Shown here: positions 23,499 through 62,643 of the stretch, piece by piece
How positions within the stretch are numbered: position 1 is the first letter of the stretch
How the letters are laid out: each line of letters opens with the position of its first letter
Assembly (NCBI GenBank): GCA_014237145.1
Contig: JAAXOC010000110.1
Coordinates: 25,639-89,638, forward strand
DNA from: ANME-2 cluster archaeon
GTDB lineage: Archaea; Halobacteriota; Methanosarcinia; Methanosarcinales; Methanocomedenaceae
Direction: 5' to 3'
DNA length: 64,000 bases
Notes under the pieces: generated by a model
Database searches by the model: none
Told to the model about the DNA's origin: nothing
What the model saw: only the letters and a program-made list of their open reading frames with translations
Program-made: the position numbers and the translations under genes

Positions 23499-23650
23499 AA
23501 TGTTCCGCCTCGTTTAAGAAGTTCTCCAATCTCTCCCTTATCAATAACGACCTGGATATTGTGATCACACTTGATCCTGACTGTCGATTCATGTGCTATA
23601 CTTAGTATTTCATCCTTGTCGAGCTTTACTGGCCATATAATCTCCTTTTC

Positions 23651-24952: not shown

Positions 24953-25009
24953 CGCTCTTAATTTCGCTTCATACTCAGATAGTTTTTATTATTTCCTGGA
25001 ACGGTTTAT

Positions 25010-25077
25010 AACCACAGAGTGCACAGAGAGCACAGAGAAAACAATAACGCTCTGTGCCCTCTGTGTTCTCCGTGGTT
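25010..25077. repeat. short palindromic CACAGAG-type intergenic repeat, copy 2
   Basis: aaccacagagtgcacagagagcacagag...ctctgtgccctctgtgttctccgtggtt; same termini and core as 16827-16891. Confidence 0.7.
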
Positions 25078-25134
25078 GATCTTCTTTGCCATGATCCATA
25101 AGGTTTGCATCTACTACTACCGCTACTTAACGAA

Positions 25135-25383
25135 CTATGCTTTCGCAGCAATTCGAAATACCGATTCTTGATGAGATTTTATTTTTTTTACAGATATTTC
25201 TTCCACTGTTTTTTCTATGTACTCATCCGACTCTGCTGTTAAGTATTCCATGCCGCAGATCGTGCAAATATCTGCATCAACATTTTCAATCGCAATTAAT
25301 CCTTGTTCAGATTCGGTGATGAATTTGGTTTTACTTCGTTCCATTTTTCCACCGCAATCAGGACATTTTTTTAATCTTGCCAT
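25135..25383 (-). CDS. YgiT-type zinc-finger protein (MqsA-like antitoxin N-domain)
   Basis: 82 aa; CPDCGG...CTICGMEY four-cysteine arrangement. Confidence 0.55.
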   Translation of the reverse strand: MARLKKCPDCGGKMERSKTKFITESEQGLIAIENVDADICTICGMEYLTAESDEYIEKTVEEISVKKIKSHQESVFRIAAKA

Positions 25384-25516
25384 ATCTACCTACTTTTCAG
25401 CCCATGGGGTCTGGTTTATTATTTTAACTTTGTACTGGATAATAGCACCCTTTTCTTCGACTTTCTCTGAAACAATCCATTCACCACCGTGATTCCAGAT
25501 CGGTTCACCATATATT

Positions 25517-25774
25517 TCAGGCAACAACCTCCTCGTATGCGTAGGTATGCCCGATCAAGCGATATGCTTCAGTAAATCCCTGCTCAAGCTCTTTTCGGAT
25601 TTTCTGCATATTCTCATTAGTTTTTTTTGCATAGTAACGTTCTCCGCATTTCGTGCATACACCAGCTTCGATCGTGAGTACTGCTGAATTACAGCCTCCT
25701 ATAACGACCTTTTCTACTGTTTTCTCGACCACCTCGCCTCCGCAGTGGGGACAGACCGGGATTATCTTTTTCAT
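25517..25774 (-). CDS. YgiT-type zinc-finger protein (putative antitoxin partner of DUF4258)
   Basis: 85 aa; CPHCGG...CTKCGERYY. Confidence 0.6.
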   Translation of the reverse strand: MKKIIPVCPHCGGEVVEKTVEKVVIGGCNSAVLTIEAGVCTKCGERYYAKKTNENMQKIRKELEQGFTEAYRLIGHTYAYEEVVA

Positions 25775-25779
25775 TTATT

Positions 25780-26112
25780 TCACCTCTTTGGTTTTCTCAT
25801 TTTATAATTAATCCACCTTTCAGGGTCAGGTATATATGCAGCTATAAGCACTGCGATTTCATGCTTTTCTGAATGTGCCCAAACACTGTGGATATGCCTG
25901 TTATTTTTATCATTACCACATATAAGACAGCTTGGAAATGGTTTATCGTCAGCATAGTCTTCTATCACTTCACCATGCAGTACTGAAAAATACAGGTCAT
26001 TATCTTCGATAGCATCATTTGCAAGCTCATCATCTGCATGGTCTGAGATGTTTACATTTCCTTTTCGTATAGCTTCCTGTATTTTTGCATTTCCATCAGC
26101 TATTTCCTCCAA
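25780..26112 (-). CDS. DUF4258-family protein (putative toxin)
   Basis: ORF 25780..26190 in track overlaps upstream gene; a TTG at 26110-26112 is a plausible start; C-terminal HIHSVWAHSEKHEIAVLIAAYIPDPERW resembles DUF4258. Confidence 0.45.
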   Translation of the reverse strand: MEEIADGNAKIQEAIRKGNVNISDHADDELANDAIEDNDLYFSVLHGEVIEDYADDKPFPSCLICGNDKNNRHIHSVWAHSEKHEIAVLIAAYIPDPERWINYKMRKPKR

Positions 26113-26692
26113 GTTTCGCCCCGCACCCAAGGCAGAATTTCTCGTTAGCTTCCACTTCCCTGCCGCATTCGGGACATTGTGCCCTTGCACCGAGGTCGAT
26201 GTTTGAGCGCTGGATGATGTTATCTTTTATTTCAGTCTTGTGTACATGATACTGGATTATCCCCTCTTCAATGAATATCTTGATGTCAAGCCTTTTCTCG
26301 ATCTCATCCAGAATCCTGTGATAAAAGCCAGTCAGAGCTTCCTCCTTCTCAGCCCATGCCTTGAGTATCATCCTGGATCTGCGCCCGCCTACTACTTCAA
26401 TATAGGCGGCATAACGCAGTCCGGCAGCACCTTCGGCATAGAACATGCCCACGCCTGTGAATAACTGGGGTGTGGATGTGATCTCCGGCGGTATCATGTA
26501 CATGCTCATATCTTTCAGTATACGGGTGGCTATATTGAACAGGTTCTCTGCCGGGATGTCAAGGTCTTTGGTGTTCTCTTCGGCTTTTATCAGTTCTTCG
26601 GTTGCATTTCTCCAGCTGTCCTCGTCGATATCTTTTCTTTTCAGGACCGGGCAGACAATGCTTATCATTTTCTTTTTGATGTCAATAAACAC
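26096..26692 (-). CDS. soluble paralog consisting only of the conserved cytoplasmic module + zinc ribbon
   Basis: 198 aa; roughly two-thirds identical by eye to residues ~365-563 of the 19690..21381 product (SIVCPVLKRKD...PQLFTGVGMFYAEGAAGLRYAAYIEVVGGRRSRMILKAWAEKEEAL...IIQRSNIDLGARAQCPECGREVEANEKFCLGCGAKL); no TM. Confidence 0.65.
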   Translation of the reverse strand: MFIDIKKKMISIVCPVLKRKDIDEDSWRNATEELIKAEENTKDLDIPAENLFNIATRILKDMSMYMIPPEITSTPQLFTGVGMFYAEGAAGLRYAAYIEVVGGRRSRMILKAWAEKEEALTGFYHRILDEIEKRLDIKIFIEEGIIQYHVHKTEIKDNIIQRSNIDLGARAQCPECGREVEANEKFCLGCGAKLGGNS

Positions 26693-26710
26693 CGGACTGC
26701 GACCCCAATT

Positions 26711-27775
26711 CTACGTATCCGCAATCACCTCTCGCACCGCAAGCAAATCCAGTCTCGACTGGGCCCTCATCATATTCTCTGATGGGTCTACGAAAATAAT
26801 GTTATTTCTTACAAGATAGCTTATCTCTGGCGTAATATGCCCATACGCATGGTTCACGTTCTCTTTTAACTTTGATAACTCCTCTACTAAGTTATCATAG
26901 ACAACTTCGTGAAGTTCTCCTCGAAACTCGATCTCCTCTCCGTAAGCCAGAAGAGAATTTAATAATTCGCTTATCTGGCTCATTCTGACCTTTAGCATCT
27001 TCGCAACCATTTTCTCCACATCTTCTACCCTTGTTAGTTCTACAAGGTAAACTGGCTTACCCCCGCAATAATTCCATGCAAGTTCCTTCTCTTTCTCGCT
27101 AAATTCATAGTTCTCCAAAAAACCCATTGTCGTATCTTTATCAAAATCGTCCACCAGCAGATATCTGCACCGCCCGGAGAGCATCGCCTCACTATAAACC
27201 TGCTCGATGAAGAGTGAATCCGATGAAACAGCAAAAATGTGGCACAGATGTAATTCCTTTGTCAGTCTGATAAAAAAATTAAATAATTTATACATCAATA
27301 ATTCATTGATCTTTATGTCTCCAATCACCTGCAGCTCATCGATGATCAACACCGGAATGCGGTTTTTTGATATCTCTGTAAAGAACTGCTCGATGTATTT
27401 GAACATATCTTTGCTTTTATCTTTCTTTTCAAATATCCGCTCAAACAGATTTATTGGTATCGGAATTCCACTGACTGCTCCCAGATCCTTTATTATCGAT
27501 TTCGCATACTCGGAAACGTTATCAACCCCGCCCCTCTCGTCGATCTCGAATAGGATGTTTAAGAAGTCTTCATAGTCAGTAATGAACCTCCCACGCAGAT
27601 TGACGTAGAAAGGGGCATAATCATCTGGCAGTTCTTTAACCAGATGGCTAATCATTGTGGTCTTTCCGCTGTTGATCGGACCGTAGACAAACGTTATCAG
27701 GGATGGCTCTGCATTCAGAATATCCATGATCTCTTTCGTCTCCTTTTCCCTATCGTAAAATTCAATTCGTCTCAT
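26711..27775 (-). CDS. archaeal ATPase (PF01637-like P-loop NTPase with C-terminal wHTH)
   Basis: 354 aa; RRIEFYDREKE...FVYGPINSGKTT Walker A, LIIDELQ Walker B context typical of Arch_ATPase. Confidence 0.75.
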   Translation of the reverse strand: MRRIEFYDREKETKEIMDILNAEPSLITFVYGPINSGKTTMISHLVKELPDDYAPFYVNLRGRFITDYEDFLNILFEIDERGGVDNVSEYAKSIIKDLGAVSGIPIPINLFERIFEKKDKSKDMFKYIEQFFTEISKNRIPVLIIDELQVIGDIKINELLMYKLFNFFIRLTKELHLCHIFAVSSDSLFIEQVYSEAMLSGRCRYLLVDDFDKDTTMGFLENYEFSEKEKELAWNYCGGKPVYLVELTRVEDVEKMVAKMLKVRMSQISELLNSLLAYGEEIEFRGELHEVVYDNLVEELSKLKENVNHAYGHITPEISYLVRNNIIFVDPSENMMRAQSRLDLLAVREVIADT

Positions 27776-27857
27776 ATTCTTTCCCTCCTCATGTATGCCG
27801 CCAGCAACCCGATGATCGCGCCAACCACCACGAATCCGGGCGTGCTCATCCCATGGA

Positions 27858-28094
27858 TCACCCCATTATCCCCATTCCCTGAACTATCCACCAAATCATT
27901 CCCTGACCCTTATCGAAATGCCACTTTGCGACAAGCCCGGCATTCCCCTGCACCGACACCATAGCCCCGCAGTGTGGACACTTACTCACCTTTGCACCTG
28001 CCCCTACCCCTGCCGAAACCGGCTTAGCCGCATCCATCAACTTAGCATCCAGCTCCTGCCTGCGGTAGGCATCCTTGCGCTCCCTATCCTTCAT
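27858..28094 (-). pseudogene. orphan duplicated 3' fragment of the SPFH-zinc-ribbon gene (zinc-ribbon tail cassette), frameshifted
   Basis: DNA 27900-28094 aligns at about 90% identity by eye with 31350-31560 (3' end of 31347..32654); translation MKDRERKDAYRRQELDAKLMDAAKPVSAGVGAGAKVSKCPHCGAMVSVQ then diverges by frameshift. Confidence 0.65.
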
Positions 28095-28140
28095 AAATAT
28101 GATCTTGTCCTCCTTTCATACTCAGTATAATCTCCTCTTT

Positions 28141-31100
28141 TCACAATTTTGCCCCGCACTCAAGACAGAACTTCTGTTCATCCTCAACCTCTATGCCGCA
28201 GTTTGGGCACTTCTTCGTACCTGCGCCAATAGTTGACCGCTCGACATTAGAATCCTTAATGTGGATGCTTACATTGTTGGCATTATTTGCAATACTACTC
28301 CTACGCACCCAGCTATCCTCTATTACCACATTTCCATCGCATATTCCATTAATATCGCAGGCGCCTAAAAGGTTGCTCCGCATTATTTGGGAATCTTTGA
28401 TGGAGACATTGAATACAGGTGCGAGTTTTCCAAGAGCTTCTCCTCTTTTTGAAAAATTTCGTCCAAGCTCAGCAAACAAACCTATTATATCTTCCTGATC
28501 CGGAGCTGCCACAAAGATTTCAATTCTTTCAGTCTCTTTGCTTACACTTGCCTTGATTACAAGATCGATCATCTTAACCTTTGTCTTTCCGTAGTACCAT
28601 GTCTCATAGGTCTTGTCATCAGTAGTCTTAAAAGTCCTCACATGGCGCACATCATGCATTTGGATGACCTCGCGGCACAGTGTCAGTGCCTTATTTATAC
28701 TAACTCCACTGGGCAGTAAAAATTCCTTACTGCTCTGGGCAGGAAGCGAGGCAACAAGTTCCTTCAGCCTGCCAATATTTATGTCCTGCTCGGTTTTGAA
28801 CAATGGGCATACGATTGGAATTTTTACAGGTTCCATTCTAACCAAATCAGGTTTACCATAAGCATCTTTGTAGTCAATCCTGCAATTAATTACCCCACCC
28901 TTCGAGCAGATTAAGCCCTCAAAATACAATACGATTGTTTTATCGCCATTTGATGCTATATTTCCAAGCTGAATCTTTTCCTTTTTCATAGCATAAGTAT
29001 TTGGTTCGTGATGATCGAATCTCAAGACGTTCTCATCATGCTCGATATCAAGGGAGACATCTGTGGCTGTAAGCTGCATTTTGTTTTGTACTGATATTTT
29101 AAGACGGATAAACCCATTGAAGAAATCATCTTTTCGGAGAACCACAAACTTATTGGAATCAGTCATAACCTTTTCACTTGGACTCGTAACACTTTCCCCT
29201 GCCGTCTCTATGTCTGTACTTATCTGGATTATTGCTGTATCCTCAGTCTTGTAGACTCTATCCAAAATATCTTTAAATTCTACAACGTAGTCGACTGGAA
29301 CTTCTCCTTTTTCAGTTGGTTTTATGTTAACATTTATAGTTTTTTGCTTACCAGCCTCAAGTCTTTTGATAATTTTAAAGTCTCGCACCTCAAGAGCTGT
29401 TAAGAAAGTAATCGTTATGGCTACGGCATGAGCAGTTCCCTTGTTTGTTACTATTAAATCCCGATGTTTCCAGGCTTTGTACTCCATCTTTGGTGGCAGT
29501 TCTATGCTAATTGAAGGCTTGCTTTCGTCAATTAATTGTTCAGTTGTGCCCCTACTCTTATTAGCGTAACTTATCGCACTGTTGTAATCATTTGCATCAA
29601 AAGCAGACTGTGCTTTGGTGTTTAGTTCTTCACCACTCTGCACTGTGACGCCAAGCTTTTTGGCTTTTTCCAGTGAATTTTTCGCAATTTTTATTTTTTC
29701 TGCTGTATCAGTTCGCAACTGCTCTAACTCTCTCTGCTTGCGTGCCTGTTCTGCTTTTTGTTGTTCATAATCCTTCACTGCAATATTTATATTTTCACTG
29801 CATTTGTGTGCATACTCTTTAGCAGTTGCAAAATGTCCTGCATCAACTTCTTTTCGTGCGTCCTGCAACAATTGTTGAATACTCTGTTGAATATTCACGC
29901 CTCTGTTCATCGCATCCTGTAAATCAATTTCTACATCTTGAATGGCTGACTTTGCTTTTTCTAGCGGTGAATAGTTTTTAGTAGGTATAAAATTAGGTTC
30001 TAATGCTGAACGTTTTGCTGGCTTATGTGACTTTTGGGATGAAGTTTGTATCACTTCCGGCGCCATTCTCCTTCTTTTTCCAACAGCGACAATGCCACCT
30101 AATACAATCATAGCGCCTACCCCAATAAATAACCAGTTTGTATCATTTATATCACTTGTGGCTGGTATGGAATTAACGTTTAACAGATGGACACCATTGC
30201 CCCCAACTGCAAGAAAAGATCCGTCAGGAGAGGTTGAAACACTATGGACAAAAAAAGGTGTGTTATAAGTCCATAGTTTTTTGCCATTTCGGTTAAAGAA
30301 GTGGACTAAGCCGCCATTGCCTCCTGCTGCCACAAAGGAGCCATCTGTTGAGATAGAAACTCCCCAGATATCCTCATGCTTTATATTTCCCCAGAAATCT
30401 TTCTTCGCATTATAATTCCAGAGTTCAGCGCCATTATGGTCTAATAGGTAGATATTTCCATTCGTACCTCCTGCTGCCACATAGGAACCATCAGCAGATA
30501 TGGAAATTTTTTGGACACTTCTGTCATCATTTATAGCATATAAATCATAGTTCCAGAGTTTTTTACCATCGCCATTAAAGAGATATATATCAGAATCCAT
30601 TACAGCGGCGATAGAAGAACCATCTGCAGATATAGCGATGTCGTCTACTTCATGAACTGTATCATAAGTCCAAAGTATTTCACCATTGAGATTGAAAAGG
30701 TAGATGGTCCCATTTGGATGGTTTCGCCAGTCACCACTACCGACTGCCACATAGGCTCCATCTGAGGACATTGCGATGCCATTAACTTTATCAGATATAT
30801 TATAGTTCCATAGTTTCTCACCATCAAGATTAAACAGATAAACATTGTTATTATCCCAACCAACTCCCGCTGCCACATAAGAACCATCGTCGGATATAGC
30901 GACATCCCAAACAGCATATTCCATTTTATAGTTCCATAATTTTTCACCATTATTATTGAGGAGGATAACATTACCCATCTGTTCACCATAGCTATCACCA
31001 CTACCAACCGCAATATAGGAACCGTCAGCAGACATGGCGACATCCCAAGCAATCTGATCAAGTTCATAATTCCAATCGAAGTAATCTATTGGCTCTGTAG

Positions 31101-31173
31101 CTACTACACCTTGGACTTGACAAATAATAAGAATTAAAAAAAATAGTGATTTTTTACTTAATGACATATTCAT
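28141..31173 (-). CDS. large single-pass membrane protein: extracellular multi-blade beta-propeller + TM + coiled coil + beta-sandwich domains + conserved module + zinc ribbon
   Basis: ORF 28141..31248; likely start MNMSLSKKSLFFLILIICQVQG (signal peptide); ~8 repeats of SxDGSYVAxG...LWNY; TM WLFIGVGAMIVLGGIVAVGKRRR; QQKAEQARKQRELEQLR coiled coil; IVCPLFKTEQD segment; C-term SNVERSTIGAGTKKCPNCGIEVEDEQKFCLECGAKL. Confidence 0.7.
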   Translation of the reverse strand: MNMSLSKKSLFFLILIICQVQGVVATEPIDYFDWNYELDQIAWDVAMSADGSYIAVGSGDSYGEQMGNVILLNNNGEKLWNYKMEYAVWDVAISDDGSYVAAGVGWDNNNVYLFNLDGEKLWNYNISDKVNGIAMSSDGAYVAVGSGDWRNHPNGTIYLFNLNGEILWTYDTVHEVDDIAISADGSSIAAVMDSDIYLFNGDGKKLWNYDLYAINDDRSVQKISISADGSYVAAGGTNGNIYLLDHNGAELWNYNAKKDFWGNIKHEDIWGVSISTDGSFVAAGGNGGLVHFFNRNGKKLWTYNTPFFVHSVSTSPDGSFLAVGGNGVHLLNVNSIPATSDINDTNWLFIGVGAMIVLGGIVAVGKRRRMAPEVIQTSSQKSHKPAKRSALEPNFIPTKNYSPLEKAKSAIQDVEIDLQDAMNRGVNIQQSIQQLLQDARKEVDAGHFATAKEYAHKCSENINIAVKDYEQQKAEQARKQRELEQLRTDTAEKIKIAKNSLEKAKKLGVTVQSGEELNTKAQSAFDANDYNSAISYANKSRGTTEQLIDESKPSISIELPPKMEYKAWKHRDLIVTNKGTAHAVAITITFLTALEVRDFKIIKRLEAGKQKTINVNIKPTEKGEVPVDYVVEFKDILDRVYKTEDTAIIQISTDIETAGESVTSPSEKVMTDSNKFVVLRKDDFFNGFIRLKISVQNKMQLTATDVSLDIEHDENVLRFDHHEPNTYAMKKEKIQLGNIASNGDKTIVLYFEGLICSKGGVINCRIDYKDAYGKPDLVRMEPVKIPIVCPLFKTEQDINIGRLKELVASLPAQSSKEFLLPSGVSINKALTLCREVIQMHDVRHVRTFKTTDDKTYETWYYGKTKVKMIDLVIKASVSKETERIEIFVAAPDQEDIIGLFAELGRNFSKRGEALGKLAPVFNVSIKDSQIMRSNLLGACDINGICDGNVVIEDSWVRRSSIANNANNVSIHIKDSNVERSTIGAGTKKCPNCGIEVEDEQKFCLECGAKL

Positions 31174-31346
31174 AATACCCCATGAAGTTGGTTTAATTTC
31201 AAGTCTTATTATGTTCTTCCCACAGTTTATACACTTGCGGACACCCATACCAATATTTAACCGTTAGATGTCGTATATTTTACTTAAAAACACGTGTTTA
31301 CTACCAATATATAGATTTATTTCCAAATATCAATACCCTTTTTTTT

Positions 31347-32654
31347 TCAATCCATCTTCCCCCCACACTCCCCACAGAACTTCGCCTGCACCGGCACCAT
31401 AGCCCCGCAGTGTGGACACTTCCTCAACTTCGCACCAGAACTTGCACCTACCCCTGCCGATACCGGCTTGGCCGCATCCATCAATTTAGCATCCAGTTCC
31501 TGCCTTCGGTAAGCATCCTTGCGCTCCCTGTCCTCAACCCCCTTCATAAACTCAACCTTTTCATCTTTCGCTTTTGCCTCGCTTTCCCTAACCTTAGCCA
31601 GCGCCTCGATCTGCTCCGCCGAAAGATTACTCAACTCACGCCCTTCACTAATAGTCTTCGCAACATCGGCACCGTCCGCCTCAGTAACAGTCTTCATATA
31701 CTCCATATCCCGGCCGTGCTCTCTATCCTTCATATCCTGCTCAACCTCAAGCTCGGCACGCATACCCCTGGCCTTTGAAAGGTGCATCTCCTCCTTTAGC
31801 TTCAATGCCTCACGGGCCGCCTTGATATCTGCCTCGTCCTCTCGCTGCTCTCTTTCAATCTGTGCCCGAACATCTTTAAGCTCCTGCTCCCGCCTGAAAT
31901 CCTTTTCAACTGATATGGGAGCATGTCTGGCCCGTACTCCAGCCACATCCACCCTGCCTTCCCTTTCCAGTCCCCCCTCCTTCGAGATAGTATCAAGTTC
32001 AGCCAGTTCTTCCCCTGTCTGGAACTCCTGGTGAGCTTCAAGTATAGTCTTGTATTCGCCAAGGTCCCACTCTGCCGTATGTTTCAACAGTTCCAGGCCC
32101 CACATATCCAGTGTCTGTTCAAGCTGGGATTCCAGTTCATTCTCGATTGTGATCTGCAAGTCCCGGTTGCCGTATATATCTTCCATAGGCATACGGCTGA
32201 TCTCAGGTTCAAGTACCCGTGTCAATACCTCGCTCTGCAGGCGTGCGTATATATCCCGGACTCCAAGGGCACGTTCACCTTTCTTATCAGTAGTTGAATA
32301 AGCATATACCATTGAAAAGAACCGTTTTATATCCCCTATCTTGAAACGAATTAACCCGCTGCAACCAAGTTTCTGTTTATCTGCTGTCCAGAGTTCACCC
32401 ATGTTCCAGTTAAGGTCTTTGGGCGAAGTGTCCATTATGACTACATCCACGTCCTTTAAAAAATTCCCGGGTTTCAGCAATCCGCCGACACGGATCTTCC
32501 CGCTGTCCAGTACATCTGTTACCTCGCCGTTCTTGACTATCACAGCTTTTTCATTAGGCTGGATGATCAGGTCCTTTTTAAGGATACCACCCACCTGGTT
32601 TTTCGGTATATTCCTGGCAATATCACTTACATCTCGCAACCATTTCCGGGCCAT
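31347..32654 (-). CDS. SPFH/band-7 (flotillin-like) domain protein with long coiled coil and C-terminal zinc ribbon
   Basis: 435 aa; N-terminal SPFH-like segment (NEKAVIVKNGEVTDVLDSGKIRV...DVDVVIMDTSPKDLNWN...LIRFKIGDIKRFF), E/R/K-rich coiled coil, tail KCPHCGAMVPVQAKFCGECGGKMD; no TM helix. Confidence 0.6.
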   Translation of the reverse strand: MARKWLRDVSDIARNIPKNQVGGILKKDLIIQPNEKAVIVKNGEVTDVLDSGKIRVGGLLKPGNFLKDVDVVIMDTSPKDLNWNMGELWTADKQKLGCSGLIRFKIGDIKRFFSMVYAYSTTDKKGERALGVRDIYARLQSEVLTRVLEPEISRMPMEDIYGNRDLQITIENELESQLEQTLDMWGLELLKHTAEWDLGEYKTILEAHQEFQTGEELAELDTISKEGGLEREGRVDVAGVRARHAPISVEKDFRREQELKDVRAQIEREQREDEADIKAAREALKLKEEMHLSKARGMRAELEVEQDMKDREHGRDMEYMKTVTEADGADVAKTISEGRELSNLSAEQIEALAKVRESEAKAKDEKVEFMKGVEDRERKDAYRRQELDAKLMDAAKPVSAGVGASSGAKLRKCPHCGAMVPVQAKFCGECGGKMD

Positions 32655-32902: not shown

Positions 32903-33460
32903 ATGGGATTGTTAAGTAAAAAAATATCACCGGATGAACTGAAAACAAAATTGTCTATCCACGAGCAGCGGCTCACAGCCAGGGAAAACGAACTAAAGAA
33001 AAAGAAAGACAGATCCAGGGAAGAGTCAAAACAGGCCCTGGCGTCCGGTAACGACAGAGAGTACAGGGTATCTTCACGCAGGTACAGCATGCTTGACGGG
33101 CAGGTCGGCACCATAAGCAATATGGTGGAGATGGCACAGAGCATGACCGATGTCATAGAAATGCAGCAGGGTCTGAAAGAAGTAGTGGAGATCGGGAACG
33201 ACCTGGGCAAATACCAGAAGCAGCTGGGTATCAATACCGGACAACTTGAAGGTGCTATCACAAATATCAGGACAAGCATGGAGAAGGTCAACGTTGCTAC
33301 TAACACCATGACATCAGCCATGGATGCAGCTATGAGCGGGGGCCAGGAACTGACTGATGTGCAGGACAGTTTAAGAGCCGAACTGATGGCTGAGATCGAA
33401 GGCGATTCAGTCGATAAGCAGGAACTGGACAAGCAGATCAAGGAAGAGTTGAAGCAGTAA
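32903..33460 (+). CDS. ESCRT-III family protein (Snf7/CHMP-like)
   Basis: 185 aa; N-terminus MGLLSKKISPDELKTKLSIHEQRL... closely parallels CHMP2 (MDLLFGRRKTPEELLRQNQRALNRAMRELDRE...); basic N-half, acidic C-half, all coiled coil. Confidence 0.7.
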   Translation: MGLLSKKISPDELKTKLSIHEQRLTARENELKKKKDRSREESKQALASGNDREYRVSSRRYSMLDGQVGTISNMVEMAQSMTDVIEMQQGLKEVVEIGNDLGKYQKQLGINTGQLEGAITNIRTSMEKVNVATNTMTSAMDAAMSGGQELTDVQDSLRAELMAEIEGDSVDKQELDKQIKEELKQ

Positions 33461-33509
33461 ATATTTCTGGGCGAATGCATTATTTGCTCCCTGGAAAGGA
33501 AAGTGGTCT

Positions 33510-33989
33510 ATGGCAAGCGATATTGACTTAGATAATGAAATATCTGTAACACCTGAACAGATCATCTGGATGTTAAGTTCATGTGACAAGGACTTTATTA
33601 TTGATATTCCAACCATATTGATCAACAATGCAGATCGAATTGATTTTAATGAATTGATCAATATTGCTTTTGAAGCTGGATCAGGTTACAGTTTACTTGC
33701 GCTTATCGATGTGGCAAATAAGTTGGAGCACAATGATGCTTTTTTCAAGGTACTGTCCCGGCAGTATCCTTCTAACATTGAGGGAAATGTAATTGAAGAT
33801 AATATTTTTCCAGTCCATAAGTTCAGGCAGCTGATAAAGCGGTCTTTTTTAGAGAGGATCGAGGAGCGGTGGAATGTTCGTATTGCTTTCACATTTGATG
33901 ATTTCTATAAAATATACCGTGACTATCATCTGCTGCCTGTGCATGGTGAGGGATTAAGGAAATATTTTGGTGATATTATTGAGATTTAA
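33510..33989 (+). CDS. hypothetical protein between ESCRT-III-like and Vps4-like genes
   Basis: 159 aa, acidic, no recognisable domain. Confidence 0.4.
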   Translation: MASDIDLDNEISVTPEQIIWMLSSCDKDFIIDIPTILINNADRIDFNELINIAFEAGSGYSLLALIDVANKLEHNDAFFKVLSRQYPSNIEGNVIEDNIFPVHKFRQLIKRSFLERIEERWNVRIAFTFDDFYKIYRDYHLLPVHGEGLRKYFGDIIEI

Positions 33990-34035
33990 AGCGAATCAAT
34001 TTCGGTATCAGAGAATCTAATGAAAATATTTACAT

Positions 34036-34170
34036 TATAGTCTACTGAATAACAATCAATAAAATATTAACCTCATATAAACGCGATAAACACAGATAGG
34101 ATGCAGCAAATCTGCGTTCATTTGCGTTTATCTGCGGTTCGATTTCCCATAAGTTTGGTGGGAGACTATA
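34036..34170. mobile_element. ~135-bp MITE-like element, copy 1 (TIR tatagtct / agactata; palindromic core ataaacacagat...gcgttcatttgcgtttatctgcggtt)
   Basis: Inverted termini tatagtct (34036-34043) and agactata (34163-34170); core shares ataaacacagat, gcgttcatYtgcg and atctgcggtt with the copy at 59241-59373. Confidence 0.6.
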
Positions 34171-34230
34171 ATACTCACGACAGTATCGTTTAGAAAAGCA
34201 ATTTAAAGAAATACAAATAAGGAATAAAAA

Positions 34231-35373
34231 ATGCCCACATCATCATCCCTCTCTGCCGAAGCCCGTGGCCTTGCAAAAGCAGCAAAAACAGCAGAGCAGG
34301 CTGGAAATATCGAAAAAGCACGTTCACTATACCTCAAGGCAGCAGACAAGTTCAACCAGGCCTCCTCCCTTAACCCTGAGAAGCTGGATAAGAACACCCA
34401 ACACGGTCTGGCAAAACATTTCTATGAACACGGCCGCTCGCTGGGCAAACAACCAGCTTCAATTGGAGGCAGTTCCGGGTCACTGGACGAACCCATTCTC
34501 TCAAAAGATGAACTGATAGTAAGTGAAAAACCCGACATCGGATTTAGTGACATAGGCGGCCTTGATAGCGTAAAAGAAGATATGAAAAAAGCCATCATCT
34601 ATCCCTTCACGCATAAAAAACTCTACGATTACTATAATCAAAAACCAGGTGGGGGCGTACTTCTCTACGGACCGCCCGGGTGTGGCAAGACCATGATCGC
34701 AAAAGCAGCAGCATCCGAGTGTGATGCTGATTTCATCAATGTTGAGACCAGTACCATAATGAGCAAATGGGTCGGTGAATCCGAAAAAAGCATTAAACAG
34801 GTATTCTCGATTGCCAGGGAATGCAACCGTGCGATCATATTTTTCGATGAGTTCGATGCAGTGGCTGGAAGACGCGGGGAGTTAGAGGATTATGCCAAGC
34901 GCATAGTCAATGAACTGCTCCAGCAGATGGACGGCATGGACAAAAATGATAACATCCTTGTGCTTGCAGCAACCAACGAACCGTGGGCTATCGATCCTGC
35001 ACTACGCCGTCCCGGCAGGTTTAAAAAACTGATATTCATACCACCACCCGACCTTGAAGCAAGAAAAGCGATATTCAATATTTATCTTCAAAAACTTCCA
35101 CTCGAAAACAATGTAGACGCTGGAACTCTGTCAAATAAGACAGATATGTATTCAGGAGCAGATATAAAGGCCATTTGTGACGATGCGGCAGAGATACCAT
35201 TACAGGAAGCATTGGAAGGGAAAGAAGCTAGGAAGATAGCTCTAAATGATTTTAGTACTGTACTCTCAAGTAGAAGGTCTTCCATCATACCATGGCAGAG
35301 GCTGGCAGTGGAGCAGGTAAGGAAAAGCGGTGAGGAAAATATTTTCAAAGAGATTATCGAACTTGAAAAATAA
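34231..35373 (+). CDS. Vps4/CdvC-like AAA+ ATPase with N-terminal MIT domain
   Basis: 380 aa; N-terminal three-helix MIT-like region (AEARGLAKAAKTAEQAGNIEKARSLYLKAADKFNQA), Walker A LLYGPPGCGKTM, Walker B IIFFDEFD, second region of homology, Vps4-type C-terminal helix. Confidence 0.8.
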   Translation: MPTSSSLSAEARGLAKAAKTAEQAGNIEKARSLYLKAADKFNQASSLNPEKLDKNTQHGLAKHFYEHGRSLGKQPASIGGSSGSLDEPILSKDELIVSEKPDIGFSDIGGLDSVKEDMKKAIIYPFTHKKLYDYYNQKPGGGVLLYGPPGCGKTMIAKAAASECDADFINVETSTIMSKWVGESEKSIKQVFSIARECNRAIIFFDEFDAVAGRRGELEDYAKRIVNELLQQMDGMDKNDNILVLAATNEPWAIDPALRRPGRFKKLIFIPPPDLEARKAIFNIYLQKLPLENNVDAGTLSNKTDMYSGADIKAICDDAAEIPLQEALEGKEARKIALNDFSTVLSSRRSSIIPWQRLAVEQVRKSGEENIFKEIIELEK

Positions 35374-48011: not shown

Positions 48012-48034
48012 ATTGTATCCAGTAATAATAATGA

Positions 48035-49303
48035 TCAGACCTTAAAATCTTTTTTGGCAATCCTATTGTCAGTCTCGTTAGCAATCCCGTTGCCAGTCCC
48101 GTTGCCAGTCCCGTTGTCAGTCCCGTTGTCAGTCCCGTTAGCAGTCCCGTTAGCAGTCCCGTTAGCAGTCCCGTTAGCAATCCCGTCAGTAGTTTCGTTA
48201 GCAGTTCCGCTGGCAATCCCGTTAATAATTGCATCATAGCGCTGGCATACACGCTTAACAATATCATCTGCGGCATTCTGGTGTGAGGGCACCAGTATAT
48301 CCGCACCTGATGATACGTCTACTCCCTCACTCGATAATCCATAATCAGGGGCTATCAGCAGCCCGCCGGAAGATACATTGAGCTTCATATCGGTGATGAG
48401 CCGGGCCACCATATCAGTAGCAGGCTTCACCCTGGTAGTAATGCCAGGGGTCTTGGATAAATATTGTTCCTTTAATTCGCTTACCTTTTCAACTGCTGCT
48501 TTTACCTTGTCCTTATTACCAAGAAGTGAGAGTTTTTCTATAGTCTCAAGCAGGTCATCGAAAGTAACAGCCTGCACCTCTATAATCTCTCCATTAAAGT
48601 ATTCGGCAACCTTCTCCCCGTACCCCTTTGAGATTACCAGCTTGCCCACGTCTTTTATTCGCAGGATCTCTTTGTCTGTGGGTTTATACGGCTCCACAAC
48701 CTTGAAATTATCAATACCCAGCAAGAACATTAGGGACAAATATCCCATTGTAACACCTACGGTGGGCTTCACACCCAGCCACTTGTCAAGCCCGGTCTGC
48801 CCTTGCTCGGATACCAGCTCGATAATCTTCTGCTTAATATACTCAGGATCACTGGATCTTAGCCCGAAATATTCGGCAAATCCCTGTGTGGTCGTAAGTA
48901 TCCGGCTTCTCCCCTCCGGGCTCCTGCTTATCAGTCCCCTGGCCTCCAGTTCCTTTACATGGTCATAGGTGGCATTGCCGCGTTTCTCTACCAGGTCGCT
49001 CTGGAGCAGTGGCTGGTGGTAGGCTATCATGGAAAGAGTCCTGAGTACAGGGGATGGCAGTTCCTTCGGAGCCACACTCCTTACCTGGTCTGCACATTCA
49101 GGTTTGACCTGCATAACGTACTTGCCTTCCACCTCAATGATATCCAGTCCTGATTGCCGCTCTTTGTATTCCTGTATGAGTGAGAGTACAATAGCACGGG
49201 TTTTTTTCTTTTTACTTACCAGTTCCTTTAATGTGGCAAGATCTACCGGTCCGCCGGCAGCGAATAATGCAGCCTCAATTATCTCACGGTCCCCTATGAA
49301 CAT
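48035..49303 (-). CDS. scpB: segregation and condensation protein B homolog with long C-terminal extension and (GTAN)n repeat tail
   Basis: 422 aa; N-terminal ScpB-like tandem wHTH (IEAALFAAGGPVDLATLKELV); C-terminal GTANGTANGTANGTDNGTDNGTGNGTGNG encoded by 12-nt DNA tandem repeats at ~48063-48230. Confidence 0.7.
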   Translation of the reverse strand: MFIGDREIIEAALFAAGGPVDLATLKELVSKKKKTRAIVLSLIQEYKERQSGLDIIEVEGKYVMQVKPECADQVRSVAPKELPSPVLRTLSMIAYHQPLLQSDLVEKRGNATYDHVKELEARGLISRSPEGRSRILTTTQGFAEYFGLRSSDPEYIKQKIIELVSEQGQTGLDKWLGVKPTVGVTMGYLSLMFLLGIDNFKVVEPYKPTDKEILRIKDVGKLVISKGYGEKVAEYFNGEIIEVQAVTFDDLLETIEKLSLLGNKDKVKAAVEKVSELKEQYLSKTPGITTRVKPATDMVARLITDMKLNVSSGGLLIAPDYGLSSEGVDVSSGADILVPSHQNAADDIVKRVCQRYDAIINGIASGTANETTDGIANGTANGTANGTANGTDNGTDNGTGNGTGNGIANETDNRIAKKDFKV

Positions 49304-58130: not shown

Positions 58131-58370
58131 TTGGAAGAAAAAAATACAATCATGGTTACAACAATCCAAATAAAAGAAGATACCAAATCGACATTAACGC
58201 AAATGAAACTCTTTGAAAGAGAGACTTATAACGATGTTTTAGAGCGACTCATTGAGGACGTTCACGAACTCAATGATGAAACAAAAAAAGAGATTGAATC
58301 CGCAATAAATGAGATCAAGAGCGGCAAATACATTACACATGAAAAGCTTGCTGAAGAAATGGGATTCTGA
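58131..58370 (+). CDS. antitoxin of RelE/ParE-type TA pair
   Basis: 79 aa; stop overlaps start of toxin gene (58370). Confidence 0.5.
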   Translation: MEEKNTIMVTTIQIKEDTKSTLTQMKLFERETYNDVLERLIEDVHELNDETKKEIESAINEIKSGKYITHEKLAEEMGF

Positions 58371-58627
58371 TGATATTTCAAATAATATGGTCAGAATCAG
58401 CAGCAAAGAAACTTAAAAAATTAGATAAAACCGTTGCAAAACGAATTTTCAAAAAAGTTTCAGAACTTAGCGAAAATCCATATCATTCTGACGTAACAAA
58501 AATGGTAGGAGATCCTTATTTTCGACTACGCATTGGTGATTATCGTTTCATTTTTAATATACAGAATGACATGCTTCGAATGCTTATTCTTAATGTAGGT
58601 CATCGAAAGAATGTCTATATAAAATAA
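58370..58627 (+). CDS. RelE/ParE family toxin
   Basis: 85 aa; YFRLRIGDYRFIFNIQNDMLRMLILNVGHRKNVY is a classical RelE/ParE C-terminal pattern. Confidence 0.75.
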   Translation: MIFQIIWSESAAKKLKKLDKTVAKRIFKKVSELSENPYHSDVTKMVGDPYFRLRIGDYRFIFNIQNDMLRMLILNVGHRKNVYIK

Positions 58628-58739
58628 TTGAACCGTCACTTTTGTAAAAATGCGCACATGAATTTGGACTGCACAATTTAAATCTCCAATTCGTCTCCTT
58701 TTCCGTTGGATTTTGAATTACTGGACCGCCTCTTTGAGC

Positions 58740-58797
58740 TGAAGAACATCCGGTGGTCCGTATTTTGTGTATACAATCGCTTTCACTGGGGTATCCT
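58740..58797 (-). pseudogene. stub of a third copy of the zinc-type alcohol dehydrogenase-like gene (first ~19 codons only)
   Basis: ctctttgagctgaagaacatccggtggtccgtattttgtgtatacaatcgctttca matches 5' ends of the genes at 60811 and 62643. Confidence 0.55.
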
Positions 58798-58817: not shown

Positions 58818-59804
58818 TTATAATCGCGCGAGTACATTAATCAGTTTATCGCAGCCACCGTTTTTTATAAATTCCGTATGATCGTCTATTGTCTTAAAAC
58901 ACTGTCCACATATTTTATGACATAGAATTTCAGAATCGGTCGCACCATAGAATGCTTTTAATGTGTTTGTCGCGTTTGGATTAAGATTTGCGGATTTCTC
59001 AGGATGTTTTCTACACCAAGCGAGAGTGTTCATCCATATCGTAGCACTCAGCGCGCCACAAGCATTACCGCTCAAACCAAGACCTCCGGCAAATCCGGCA
59101 ACCATAACCATTTCTTCATCACTAGCTCCCATTTTTTTGGCGACTTCAGAAGCGCAACTTATAGGCAGTTGAGGTAGATCAGTTTGTTCGTTGGATAATC
59201 CTTCAGTTGCTGATTGGATCGCTTCCGGAGTCCTTTTTCCGAGACCGTTACAATTTGTGTTGGTGAATCTAATTAAACCACAGATAAACACAGATGAACA
59301 CAGATTTTCAGGCAGCGTATCCGCGTTCATCTGCGGTTAGTTTGATAATACTAACATTTAATGTAACGGTCTCATTTTTCCGCAAGTTTAAAGCAGGATA
59401 TAAATCTACCAGATAAAAAGTATTTCACCAGACTAAATTTGCTTGAAAAATCACAACCAGTTATGTCCGAACAGTTGACGCTTTTTGCCCTATTTGAAAA
59501 TGATTCCATAAGGTGCCACGTTGCCGTTATGGCAATACCGATGGCTTGACCGCGGTCATTGCTCCTACGAAAGGATTCCGCTCCTACAGCCAATGCAGAC
59601 CCCCCAAAGCATTCCGCATTGATATCCTTCTTTCATTAATCCACCCGCTAATGGGTCCGCAGCACGCTCCTCAGTTTCTAGTGGATAACCGAATTCGCGG
59701 TTTAATATATAAAAGAATGTGCGAGAGCAAGTACCTAATTTTCGAAATACTTTTTTGGTGTCTTGTTGAGCGGTCTTTTTGTTTGAATTCATTTTTTTCA
59801 CCAT
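58818..59804 (-). pseudogene. C_GCAxxG_C_C family gene disrupted by MITE insertion and frameshifts
   Basis: Three consecutive ORFs in different frames (59565..59804, 59372..59593, 58818..59330) together align to the intact C_GCAxxG_C_C region of 60868..62643; N-terminus of the 58818..59330 ORF is read from the inserted element. Confidence 0.75.
59241..59373. mobile_element. 133-bp MITE, copy 2, inserted into C_GCAxxG_C_C gene; 12-bp TIRs gagaccgttaca/tgtaacggtctc; 8-bp TSD tttttccg
   Basis: Comparison with the intact paralog (61290-61330) shows a clean insertion flanked by direct tttttccg (59233-59240 and 59375-59382); core aaccacagataaacacagatgaacacag...gcgttcatctgcggtt. Confidence 0.8.
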
Positions 59805-60811
59805 TTCTTTTTATTATGTTCCAAAGTTATGACTACATTTCCCTTTTTGTGTCCTTTTTCGACATACCTGTGAGCCTCAGCAGTCTGTTCCAGCGGATAG
59901 CATCGATCTATGACCGATATTATCTTCCCCGCCTCAACAAGCTCTTTGAGGAAAATTAGATCTTCAGACTTTTCGCTTGCCAACGCACATATTACTTTCT
60001 TGCTGCCTATAATCGAAGTCCCTAACATTTGAATAAGTTTTCTCATCTTAAAGCTGGCTAAAAGATAACGTCCGTTCTGCGTTAGCGAGCCTTTACAACG
60101 TGAGAATGAACTCCTGCCTAATATGTCAAAAATTAGATTATATTTCTCACCGTTCTTGGTAAAATCCTCCTTGGTATAATCGATTACTTTATCAGCTCCC
60201 AGAGATTTCACCAATTCTAATCTCGGGGTACTGCATACCCCGGTAACTTCTGCTCCATAATACTTGGCAAGCTGCACTGCGAGTGACCCTATCCCTCCGG
60301 AAGCTCCATTGATAAGGACCTTTTGTCCGCTCTGAATATTTACTTTTCTAAGGAGGCTTAACGCCATTATTCCCCCGTAAGGAACGCAAGCGGCTTCCTC
60401 ATAGGTCATATTGGCCGGTTTGATCCCCACCATCCCATCTTCAGGCATACATAGATACTCGGCATTGGCACCCATGCTCATACCACGATATGCAAAAACT
60501 TGGTCTCCTCTCCGAAATTTTTTTACACCTTTGCCTATCGCTTCAATTTCCCCGGCTAACTCGCTCCCCAGTATAGGGTTTTTTGGTTTTCTGAGACCAA
60601 ATGACATTCGTGCGGGGAGCCAGAGGAGCATAGGCATATTGAACTCGCTGGGAGAGATATTGCTAAAATTTCGAGCTGTAATATCCCCGTAATTTACTGG
60701 CGTCGCATATACACTTATCAGTATTTCATTATCCTTGGGAGTAGGTTTTTCTACCTCTTTGAGCTGAAGAACATCGGGTGATCCGTATTTTGTATATACA
60801 ATCGCTTTCAT
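59798..60811 (-). CDS. zinc-type alcohol dehydrogenase-like / quinone oxidoreductase (MDR superfamily)
   Basis: 337 aa; [24 protein letters not shown]-terminus, NAD(P)-binding [15 protein letters not shown]. Confidence 0.8.
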
Positions 60812-60867: not shown

Positions 60868-62643
60868 CTATTGAAGAGAATTCGTGTCCGCGAGTACATT
60901 AATCAGTTTATTGCAGCCACTGTTTTTTATAAATTCAATATGATCGTCTATTGTCTTAAAACACTGTCCACATATTTTATGACATAGAATTTCAGAATCG
61001 GTCACTTCATAGAATGCTTTTAATGTATTTGTCGCGTTTGGATTAGGATTTGAAGATTTTCCAGGATGTTTTCTACACCAGTCAAGTGTGTCTATCCATA
61101 TAGCGGCGCTCAGTGCGCCACAAGCATTGCCGCTCAAACCAAGACCTCCAGCAAATCCGGCAACCATAACCATTTCTTCATCACTAACTCCCATTTTTTT
61201 AGCGACTTCAGAAGCGCAACTTATTGGCAGTTGAGTTAAATCCGTTTGTTCGTAGGATAATCCTTCAGTTGCTGATTGGATCGCTTCCGGAGCCCATTTT
61301 TCCGCGAGTTTAAGGCAGGATATGACTTTACCAAAGAGAAAGTATTTCGCCATACTGATTTTGCTTGAAAAATCACAACCAGTTATATCCCTACAATTGA
61401 CGCTTTTAGCCCTTTTTGAAAATGATTCCATAAGGTGCCCCGTTGCCGTTATGGCTATACCGATGGCTTGATCGTGATTATCGTGCCTACGAAAGGATTC
61501 CGCCCCCACAGCCAATGCAGATCCCCAAAGCATTCCGCATTGATATCCTTGTTGCAATATTCCACCACATAATGGATCCGCGGCACGCTCCTCAGTTTCT
61601 TTTAGATAACCGAATTCACGGTTTAATATATAAAAGAATGCGCTAGAGCAAGGGCCTTTTTTTAGAAATACTTTTTTGGTGTCTCTTTTAATCACTTTCG
61701 TAATGATTTCTTCAATTCGTTGGATTTTATTATTATGTTTCAAAGTTATGACTACATTTCCCTTTTTGTGTCCTTTTTCAACATACCTGTGAGCCTCGGC
61801 AATTCGTTCCAAAGGATAGCGTCTATCTATGACCGGTTTTATCTTTCCCGCCTCAATAAGCTCTTTGAGGAAAATTAAATCTTCGGCACTTTCCTTATAT
61901 GTCACCTTATGAATTGACACGAATGTCCCGTTCGGAATTAGTGCTTTCTTGCACTTTGATTTCGAGAGTTTTCCAACGGCATCAAAGATGCAACCATAAA
62001 GCTCTCCGCTTTGGGTAAAATCCTCTTTGGTGTAATCAATTACGTTATCGGCTCCCAGAGATTTCACGAACTCTAAATTGGTGGTACTGCATACCCCGGT
62101 AATTTCTGCCCCAAAGTGCTTGGCAAGCTGCACCGCAAAAGTACCTACACTCCCAGAAGCTCCATAGATTAAAACTTTTTGTCCGCTCTGGATATTTCCT
62201 TTTCTAAGAACCTGCAATGCCCCAATTCCCCCGGTAGGAACGGCGGCAGCTTCCTCATAGGTCATGTTGGCCGGTTTTATTGCCACCACCCCTTCTTCAG
62301 GCAGACATTTGTATTCGGCATGAGCGCCAAAATCCAAACCGCAAGATGCAAAAACTTGGTCACCTTTCTTGAACAGCTTTACATCTTTACCTACTGCTTC
62401 AATTTCCCCGGCTAGCTGCATCCCTAGTATAGCTCTCTTTGGTTTTCTAAGACCTAAATATATTCGCGCGGGGAGCCATTCCCAGAAAGGGACTGTGAAA
62501 CTTCGCATTCTCACGTCCCCTGCTGAAACGGTTGTCGCGTGTACTTTTACCAGTATTTCATTGTCCTTGGGAGTAGGTTTTTCCACCTCTTTGAGCTGAA
62601 GAACATCCGGTGGTCCGTATTTTGTGCATACAATAGCTTTCAT
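60868..62643 (-). CDS. fusion ORF: MDR-superfamily oxidoreductase (N-terminal ~330 aa) + C_GCAxxG_C_C family domain (C-terminal ~250 aa)
   Basis: 591 aa continuous frame; N-half ~75% identical by eye to 59798..60811 product; C-half contains intact [22 protein letters not shown] motif; no stop between halves, unlike the paralogous pair. Confidence 0.65.

Follow-up and report, generated by a model that had tools for sequence, protein, structure and literature searches.

The stretch of DNA analysed here, 64,000 nucleotides (nt) of contig JAAXOC010000110.1 from an archaeon of the ANME-2 cluster (ANME, anaerobic methanotrophic), is referred to in its whole length as the window. On its minus strand lie two tandem units, each made of an alcohol dehydrogenase followed by a C_GCAxxG_C_C domain. 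In the first unit the two parts are fused into a single intact protein, while in the second a dehydrogenase of 337 amino acids (aa; 59798-60811) is followed by a C_GCAxxG_C_C gene that is broken by a 133-base-pair (bp) insert with inverted ends. This insert is best read as a MITE (miniature inverted-repeat transposable element), one copy of a multi-copy family, that landed in one of two tandem paralogs and depends on an IS256-type transposase made elsewhere, a reading to which we give a probability of about 0.93. The features that bear on it are collected in Table 1.

Table 1 Features discussed in the text. Positions are counted from the first letter of the window; IS, insertion sequence; TIR, terminal inverted repeat; TSD, target-site duplication.
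Feature	Position	Strand	Remarks
MITE, 133 bp	59241-59373		Perfect 12-bp inverted ends; aligned end to end with 20 ANME-2/Methanosarcinales copies; paralog lacks the element
Left TIR, GAGACCGTTACA	59241-59252	+	27/28 nt match one end of the IS at locus L112, the end upstream of the transposase gene in the parent IS
Right TIR, TGTAACGGTCTC	59362-59373	-	24/24 nt of the family consensus match the other end of the L112 IS; subterminal TGTAAC inside
Left TSD copy, degraded, CTTTTTCC	59233-59240		Most simply ATTTTTCC minus A
Right TSD copy, 8 bp, ATTTTTCC	59374-59381		Same 8-mer occurs once in the intact paralog, at 61296-61303
Hairpin core of 10-nt units (CRCAGATRAA and inverse)	59276-59338	-	Palindromic; pairing best on the minus strand
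Disrupted C_GCAxxG_C_C pseudogene	58818-59804	-	Split by the MITE, with a +1 frameshift in the C6 run at 59600-59605; three reading-frame segments; PF09719 on the 170-aa remnant
Intact paralog, 591-aa zinc alcohol dehydrogenase/C_GCAxxG_C_C fusion	60868-62643	-	Empty-site reference; target ATTTTTCC at 61296-61303
Separate hairpin-bearing segment, 140 bp	34030-34169		Core at 34069-34139; 10-bp inverted repeat at 34034-34043 and 34163-34172

The insertion site and the boundaries of the element

No orthologous empty site could be found in the sister assemblies, which were searched through the neighbouring alcohol dehydrogenase and topoisomerase VI-B proteins: loci L004 and L024 carry the insertion, and the contigs of L025 and L026 end nearby. 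The intact paralog was therefore used as the reference instead. Alignment of the broken gene with the corresponding paralog region (61212-61382) leaves one single gap of 140 nt, at ATTTTTCC, which confirms the clean insertion into a C_GCAxxG_C_C gene that the original prediction had proposed. With the MITE excised in silico, the disrupted region is 86.5% identical to the paralog. One further frame-breaking change lies outside the MITE, where the paralog has TC4 in place of the C6 run. The insertion also has a consequence for gene calling, as the 170-aa C_GCAxxG_C_C open reading frame (ORF) called on the minus strand at 58818-59330 takes its start ATG from within the element. Element sequence accounts for the first ~32 residues of its translation (MNADTLPENLCSSVFICGLIRFTNTNCNGLGK, then an R at the duplication remnant), and the annotated 'gene' thus combines MITE and pseudogene in one chimera.

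The limits of the element can be set from the alignment of the family described below, in which the first base of each copy is G and the last is C, fixing the unit at 133 bp. Beyond the perfect 12 bp, the inverted ends extend imperfectly to 24 nt at 79% identity. No transposase is encoded between them, and the only ORFs that cross the element are read-through fragments of the host gene. When folded as a whole, the element reaches -54.8 kcal/mol on the minus strand (z -9.3 against shuffled controls) and -45.9 kcal/mol on the plus strand (z -6.2, likewise). Inverted ends, a target duplication of the 8-bp class and the lack of an internal transposase had all been predicted, and all three are upheld.

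Given the constant G and C at the ends of the family alignment, the target duplication must be the 8 bp adjacent to them, which read CTTTTTCC on the left and ATTTTTCC on the right and match at 7 of 8 positions. The net gain over the paralog, 140 nt, equals 133 + 8 - 1. On the simplest reading, the element was inserted at ATTTTTCC and an A was lost from the left copy afterwards, leaving a duplication that is not intact. The original prediction was right that an 8-bp direct duplication exists and wrong about its sequence: it had been given as tttttccg, a register that would leave two bases (ca) on the right side unexplained, whereas the duplicated sequence is ATTTTTCC, with the left copy one base short.

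A family of copies with the same ends

Searching for the paired ends in other genomes places the element in a family. A scan of one genome per species with the pattern AGACCGTTACA-N(94-124)-TGTAACGGTCT returned 19 stretches holding 20 further copies, at least 16 of them in one metagenome-assembled genome (MAG), SMBSF02, counting one with a mismatched end and one cut by the end of its locus. Other copies come from HMMV-459A3 (Candidatus Methanocomedens) and from further ANME-2/Methanosarcinales bins, and the labels of the genomes in which the element occurs read Methanosarcinales, ANME-2 or Candidatus Methanocomedens. A scan of metagenomes with one extended end gave at least 120 stretches. Genome and metagenome copies were then pooled and redundant flanks removed, which left 85 sites, a lower bound on the number of distinct sites. 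Within the window itself, sites resembling GAGACCGTTACA at up to one mismatch are confined to the two ends of the element, and a scan of viral contigs with the extended end sequence gave 0 matches. The literature searched, which had limited coverage and took in work on MITEs of ANME, Methanoperedens and Methanosarcina as well as the assembly accessions, yielded no published description or name for the family. One of the 20 copies from the genome scan lies at L017 (JAUWCU010000168.1), a 3-kilobase (kb) low-coverage contig binned as Candidatus Stahlbacteria; binning error is more likely here than transfer between domains.

The flanks of these copies carry the mark of transposition. Perfect 8-bp duplications flank 57 of the 85 listed sites, all mutually different, and 7 of 8 bases match at 11 more. 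In the first 21 copies (the 20 from the genome scan plus that of the window) the corresponding figures are 14, again all different, and 3. Across the 85 listed sites, duplication positions 2-7 are ~85-90% A/T and the G+C content of the whole duplication is 25%, indicating a preference for A/T-rich targets. These findings bear on the possibility that the insert is a local rearrangement, that is, a palindromic duplication or repair scar whose flanking repeat arose by slippage. Such an origin could draw on the target being a slippage-prone T-run and on the imperfect left repeat. It is refuted by the recurrence of the same 121-153-bp sequence in several genomes, at dozens of loci that are unrelated to one another and each have a different 8-bp duplication, and we consider its probability negligible. 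Chance is likewise excluded by the presence of the same ends at 85 other sites, 57 of them with distinct perfect duplications.

Between the common ends, the interior varies. The family interiors across the at least 85 distinct sites, all in ANME-2/Methanosarcinales DNA, span 121-383 bp. Hairpin-bearing copies fall into classes of 121, 123, 133, 143 and 153 bp, which differ by whole 10-nt CRCAGATRAA units, the 143-bp class being the commonest (41 of 85 listed sites). A subfamily of 199-209 bp, found at no fewer than 15 sites, has the same ends around an unrelated interior without a hairpin, and subfamilies of 210-335 bp have the same ends around a second hairpin of 10-nt units (CTTTGCG.../...CGCAAAG). 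Some loci combine more than one of these forms. For instance, a 280-bp copy at L130 (2813-3092) contains both hairpin types, MITEs of different subfamilies stand 8 bp apart at L117 (1448-1590 and 1599-1806), and at L143 (2261-2643) ~170-230 bp of other DNA lie between a partial left end and a complete copy. Such arrangements suggest insertion in or close to existing copies, and recombination among subfamilies.

Most copies are intergenic. An initial count of 10 gene-disrupting sites among the 85 proved to be inflated and was discarded, as open frames run upstream of start codons. When in-silico excision was judged by a stricter rule, which asks that the site be well within a long open frame, three such sites are left besides the window copy; of these, the one at L107 is probably a short way upstream of the true start, and L044 and L144 are likely intragenic insertions. 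The window copy is thus one of the rare insertions of this family that disrupt a gene.

The autonomous partner and its transposase

The original prediction had suggested searching the genome for more copies and for a cognate insertion sequence (IS), and both were found in the scans of other genomes and of metagenomes. At metagenome locus L112 (5389-6840) lies a 1,452-bp IS with the same ends as the MITE, a perfect 8-bp duplication of its own (TTCTTATC) and a single ORF of 401 aa. Further copies of 1,418-1,459 bp, some of them decayed, were recovered by way of the protein; IS copies are present in L032, L118 and L147-L153, mostly on 1-2-kb contigs. When the MITE consensus is compared with the IS, the common sequence is restricted to the terminal 24-28 nt of each end. 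A derivation of the MITE interior from the IS was accordingly rejected, and the MITE is to be seen as IS ends with foreign cargo and not as a simple internal deletion. This also bears on the idea that a full-length IS entered the gene and was later cut down in place to 133 bp. The identity of MITE and IS ends would agree with such a history, but the interior is the hairpin core of the family, common to copies elsewhere that have their own duplications, and independent deletions in place could not recreate it. We hold that course of events to be extremely unlikely.

The affinity of the 401-aa protein had to be sought beyond the curated models. Alone, it gives sub-threshold matches to Pfam DUF6431 (at a zinc-finger N terminus), Transposase_mut (19.5, cut-off 21) and MULE. 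None of ten distant relatives reached the cut-off of any named family in an NCBIfam scan. A search of 1.84 billion representative proteins gave 259 clusters (50% identity) with E <= 0.001, and close homologs form 43 clusters whose named sources are ANME-2, Methanoperedens, Argoarchaeum and one Nitrospirota MAG. In an alignment of relatives down to 18% identity, D168, D226, C246 and H249 never vary and T332, N334 and E337 hardly do; these are the DDE triad and the CxxH and TNxxE motifs of Mutator/IS256 transposases. The remote relatives were needed for structural comparison as well: a shallow alignment of 14 close homologs gave a model with pLDDT 45 and a Protein Data Bank (PDB) profile search without any transposase match. 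With them, the sequence profile, over 298 positions and with the motifs aligned, matches PDB 6xg8 (ISCth4, IS256 family) at E 1.5e-22, and the AlphaFold model reaches pLDDT 86 and pTM 0.77. The five best PDB fold matches of this model in Foldseek are all ISCth4 chains (E 1.6e-10, TM 0.52-0.54), the next lying at TM ~0.2.

Comparison with known families can be used to place the parent IS. ISCth4 is 1,503 bp long, has a subterminal TGTAAA in its ends, makes A/T-rich 8-bp duplications and moves by copy-out/paste-in through a double-stranded circle, and a subterminal TGTAAA is a conserved feature of IS256-family ends (PMC7780238). The parent IS resembles this family (IS256; ISCth4, PDB 6xg8/6xgw/6xgx) in its length of ~1.45-1.5 kb, its single transposase ORF of ~400 aa, the CxxH and TNxxE motifs of its DDE core, A/T-rich duplications of 8 bp and TGTAA(A/C) in a subterminal position. 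It differs in an N-terminal four-cysteine zinc finger (the sub-threshold DUF6431 match), in an identity of ~16% to ISCth4 and in a score below the NCBIfam IS256 cut-off. From the ISCth4 profile and fold matches, the motifs, the 8-bp A/T-rich duplications and the subterminal TGTAAC, we place the parent IS on a divergent branch of the IS256/Mutator superfamily, although the curated hidden Markov model (HMM) of the family does not recognize it.

Another candidate affiliation is the ISL3 family, whose members also make 8-bp duplications. The parent IS shares with it this duplication length, an N-terminal zinc finger and a weak HMM match. No ISL3-type structure or profile match was found for it, however, and both profile and structure evidence point to IS256.

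Weighing the reading and a possible mechanism

Several observations weigh against the reading proposed here. The scores of the 401-aa protein, 34.8 bits against a cut-off of 150 for NCBIfam transpos_IS256 and 35.3 bits against 180 for ISL3, are so far below the curated thresholds as to mark a divergent lineage and not a standard member of either family. Five or fewer of the 8 flanking bases match at 3 of the first 21 copies and at 17 of the 85 listed sites, for which recombination among copies, chimeric assembly or decay may be responsible. A homolog of the transposase is absent from the 64-kb window and from the retrieved genome loci. Finally, the copy-out/paste-in route is presumed for the MITE family by analogy with IS256 relatives.

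In its general build, the family is of a familiar kind. IS-derived MITEs of prokaryotes include the SM elements of Sulfolobus and the Correia elements of Neisseria, and a census counts 18,091 archaeal MITEs (PMC11602168). Like them, the present elements are 120-380 bp long, have TIRs identical to those of an IS, a TSD of fixed length and no transposase, and occur in many mostly intergenic copies with strong hairpin potential. Unlike them, they have an interior that is not IS-derived, with a modular hairpin of 10-nt units that occurs also in elements with other ends.

A possible course of events can be outlined by analogy with IS256 and ISCth4. Each MITE copy consists of ~25-33 bp from each end of the ~1.45-kb IS, joined to an unrelated hairpin core. 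The parent IS encodes one IS256/Mutator-type DDE transposase of 401 aa with its N-terminal zinc finger, and this protein, made elsewhere in the cell and acting in trans, would bind both GAGACCGTTACA-type ends. Mobilization in trans had been put forward in the original prediction, and the IS with matching ends supports it as an inference. Movement is probably by copy-out/paste-in through a circular intermediate: one 3' end would attack the other end to give a figure-eight, replication would release a circle with abutted ends, and the circle would be integrated into an A/T-rich target with an 8-bp stagger, the repair of which would produce the duplication. With the donor copy kept, copy number would rise, which fits the near-identical burst of 143-bp copies in SMBSF02. 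In the window, the element landed at ATTTTTCC in one of the tandem C_GCAxxG_C_C paralogs and inactivated the gene, which would then have decayed further.

Age of the insertion

The insertion had been described as caught in the act, an intact target duplication being taken as a sign of recent activity. This does not hold, as the duplication matches at 7 of 8 positions, the insertion is fixed and the gene has an extra frameshift. The same insertion and the same frameshifts are found, gap-free, in two other assemblies (L004 and L024), which show 5-6 substitutions per 1,200 nt (~0.5%) relative to the window, so that the insertion is fixed across at least three assemblies and an assembly error is argued against. 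Compared with its nearest relatives, the window copy has three mismatches and one 10-nt unit fewer. Proteins of window genes have exact matches in assemblies GCA_014237495.1, GCA_014237135.1, GCA_014237125.1 and GCA_014237115.1 and in the Logan assembly of SRR1237970. As to the order of events, the insertion would have come first and the decay of the gene after it.

The hairpin core as a module

The hairpin core is not tied to one set of ends. At L111 (2919-3075), the same hairpin lies in a MITE with different ends (GAGACTTTTT.../...AAAAAGTCTC) and with its own perfect 8-bp duplication, TTAAATCC, and the core is seen also at L011, L043 and L056. Its presence inside elements with different ends makes it a module common to several elements. 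Where it stands alone (34069-34139 of the window, L011, L043 and L056), the core behaves as a dispersed intergenic hairpin, much like repetitive extragenic palindrome (REP) or bacterial interspersed mosaic element (BIME) repeats. It differs from these in that inverted ends with 8-bp duplications surround the hairpin in no fewer than two families, where it thus moves as MITE cargo. No REP-associated tyrosine transposase was seen, though no search was aimed at it.

The two strands of the hairpin are not equivalent. In the 143-bp class, the stem positions that depart from Watson-Crick pairing are almost all G.U on one strand, which in the window is the minus strand (122 cells, against 15 on the other), and the alignment folds to -52 kcal/mol on the favoured strand as compared with -21 on the other. 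At three CpG positions of the stem the pair is G:C, G:U or A:U, and the A.C intermediate almost never occurs. With respect to the transposase gene of the parent IS, the favoured strand is the antisense one, and one copy has its core flipped relative to its ends. As the copies are related by descent, this asymmetry is suggestive only: behind it could lie a constraint that acts on the hairpin as RNA or as single-stranded DNA, or else C-to-T decay at CpG that is asymmetric. That the hairpin (AACCGCAGAT GAACGCAGAT ... and its inverse) is an independent module exchanged between MITE families and held under a strand-specific constraint as RNA or single-stranded DNA is a tentative proposal, and a rather unlikely one.

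Another interpretation would make the core a functional unit used by the host, as a structured RNA or as a protein-binding array with 10-nt spacing, with the MITE mainly its vehicle. Its recurrence with different ends at L111, at window 34030-34169 and at L011, L043 and L056 would suit such a role, as would a second, similar 10-nt-unit hairpin (CTTTGCG/CGCAAAG) in other subfamilies with the same ends, the stem changes from G:C through G:U to A:U and the strand bias in G.U counts and folding energy. However, the orientation of the hairpin relative to flanking ORFs, examined as for a terminator or 3' untranslated region, shows no significant bias (downstream, 14 sense and 20 antisense; upstream, 14 and 26). 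Rfam 15 at the gathering threshold gives no matches anywhere in the window, the core included. The pair counts are not independent, since the copies are related by descent, and C-to-T change at CpG could give the pattern. Moreover, the hairpin-free 199-209-bp subfamilies have also spread, to at least 15 sites, and so the hairpin is not needed for mobility. A host function for the core is accordingly quite improbable.

A second hairpin-bearing segment

The original prediction had named a second copy of the MITE at 34036-34170. What it had seen there is real in part: a core related to that of the MITE does recur, with short inverted repeats around it, in the form of a perfect 10-bp pair, ATTATAGTCT/AGACTATAAT, that encloses the core at 34069-34139. 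As a copy of the family it does not stand, because it has no GAGACCGTTACA-type ends and no target duplication and has only the hairpin core in common with the MITE. In a BLAST comparison with 1.1 Mb of related DNA, the one part that matches is 34108-34139, identical at 32/32 nt to a hairpin arm of several MITE copies. The segment at 34030-34169 is a separate and older 140-bp insertion or deletion with the same kind of hairpin.

Related loci can be used to trace its history. At L156, which encodes a Vps4-like protein 77% identical to that of the window, the flanks abut and the whole of 34030-34169 is replaced by a single G. L154, with 90% identity in this protein, has the segment as well; its hairpin is better there, and its right repeat has decayed to AAACTCTAAT. 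L048 has the core and the right flank in common with the window, up to GGGAGACTATAAT. An old, decayed insertion of a different hairpin-carrying MITE would account for the presence and absence of these 140 nt between abutting flanks, for the perfect inverted repeat in the window and for the relative at L048, and L111 demonstrates that MITEs with other ends can carry hairpins of this sort. Against this, no 8-bp duplication can be recognized, either in the window, where the flanks do not repeat, or where they abut in L156. The inverted repeat is not conserved in L154, and 10 bp of inverted repeat in A/T-rich intergenic DNA is weak evidence. A single partial relative was found in the 1.1 Mb. The alternative is an ancestral intergenic sequence that was deleted in the lineage of L156, and we put the chances of the decayed-MITE origin at roughly even.

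The genes around this segment (32903-35373) had been labelled ESCRT-III and Vps4, and these labels are not well founded. The 380-aa ATPase has AAA and AAA_lid_3 domains and no more than a faint MIT match, and homologous proteins, named generically as AAA ATPases, occur widely in Methanosarcinales (Methanolobus, Methanococcoides, Methanoperedens). For the 185-aa and 159-aa proteins no Pfam match is on record. L154 (2254-2243, set against window 33609-33974) has lost most of the 159-aa gene that separates the 185-aa gene from the ATPase, and has kept the hairpin segment.

Neighbouring genes and other repeats

Other features of the window were noted along the way. A third copy of the alcohol dehydrogenase 5' end, 60 nt long and 92-95% identical to the others (60751-60810 and 62583-62642), lies at 58726-58785, just downstream of the disrupted unit, and suggests that the tandem array once had at least three units, the last of which is now a stub. 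Directly downstream of the disrupted gene (58131-58627) is a two-gene pair encoding a 79-aa protein and an 85-aa protein of the ParE toxin family. A weak DUF7557 match is on record for a shorter, 72-aa call of the first of these genes, and toxin-antitoxin-like pairs are also frequent in neighbouring loci.

Repeats of other kinds are present as well. At 2781-2960 there is a tandem array of about six 30-nt units (GCCATGGGATAAAATGTATATGAATTCTAT) that are 90-97% identical and, having no spacers, are not CRISPR-like, and a long run of 12-nt tandem units resembling TTGCCAGTCCCG occupies 48030-48235. The repeats D7 and D14-D16 (23646-28209 and 27943-31534) link zinc-ribbon/Band_7-type genes at ~19.7, 23.6, 26.1, 28.1 and 31.4 kb, which indicates a paralogous gene family in this region. 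Detection of tRNA genes in the window found nothing.

Significance

MITEs and IS256-type elements are textbook mobile DNA, and the element described here is of an ordinary kind that leaves existing concepts unchanged. What is added is a previously unannotated repeat family, defined together with its parent IS, in uncultured methane-oxidizing archaea. The parent transposase, as a deep and rare branch of the IS256/Mutator group with a zinc-finger N terminus, may be of interest to transposon taxonomists. There are practical consequences too. The MITE accounts for a mis-called 170-aa C_GCAxxG_C_C gene, repeats break assemblies, as seen from the sister contigs that end at the insertion locus, and MITE copies are markers for strain-level variation in ANME-2 populations. 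If the modular hairpin cargo is indeed exchanged between MITE families and under constraint, transposons would be seeding the genomes of ANME-2 and Methanoperedens with a functional structured element, and not just with junk palindromes.

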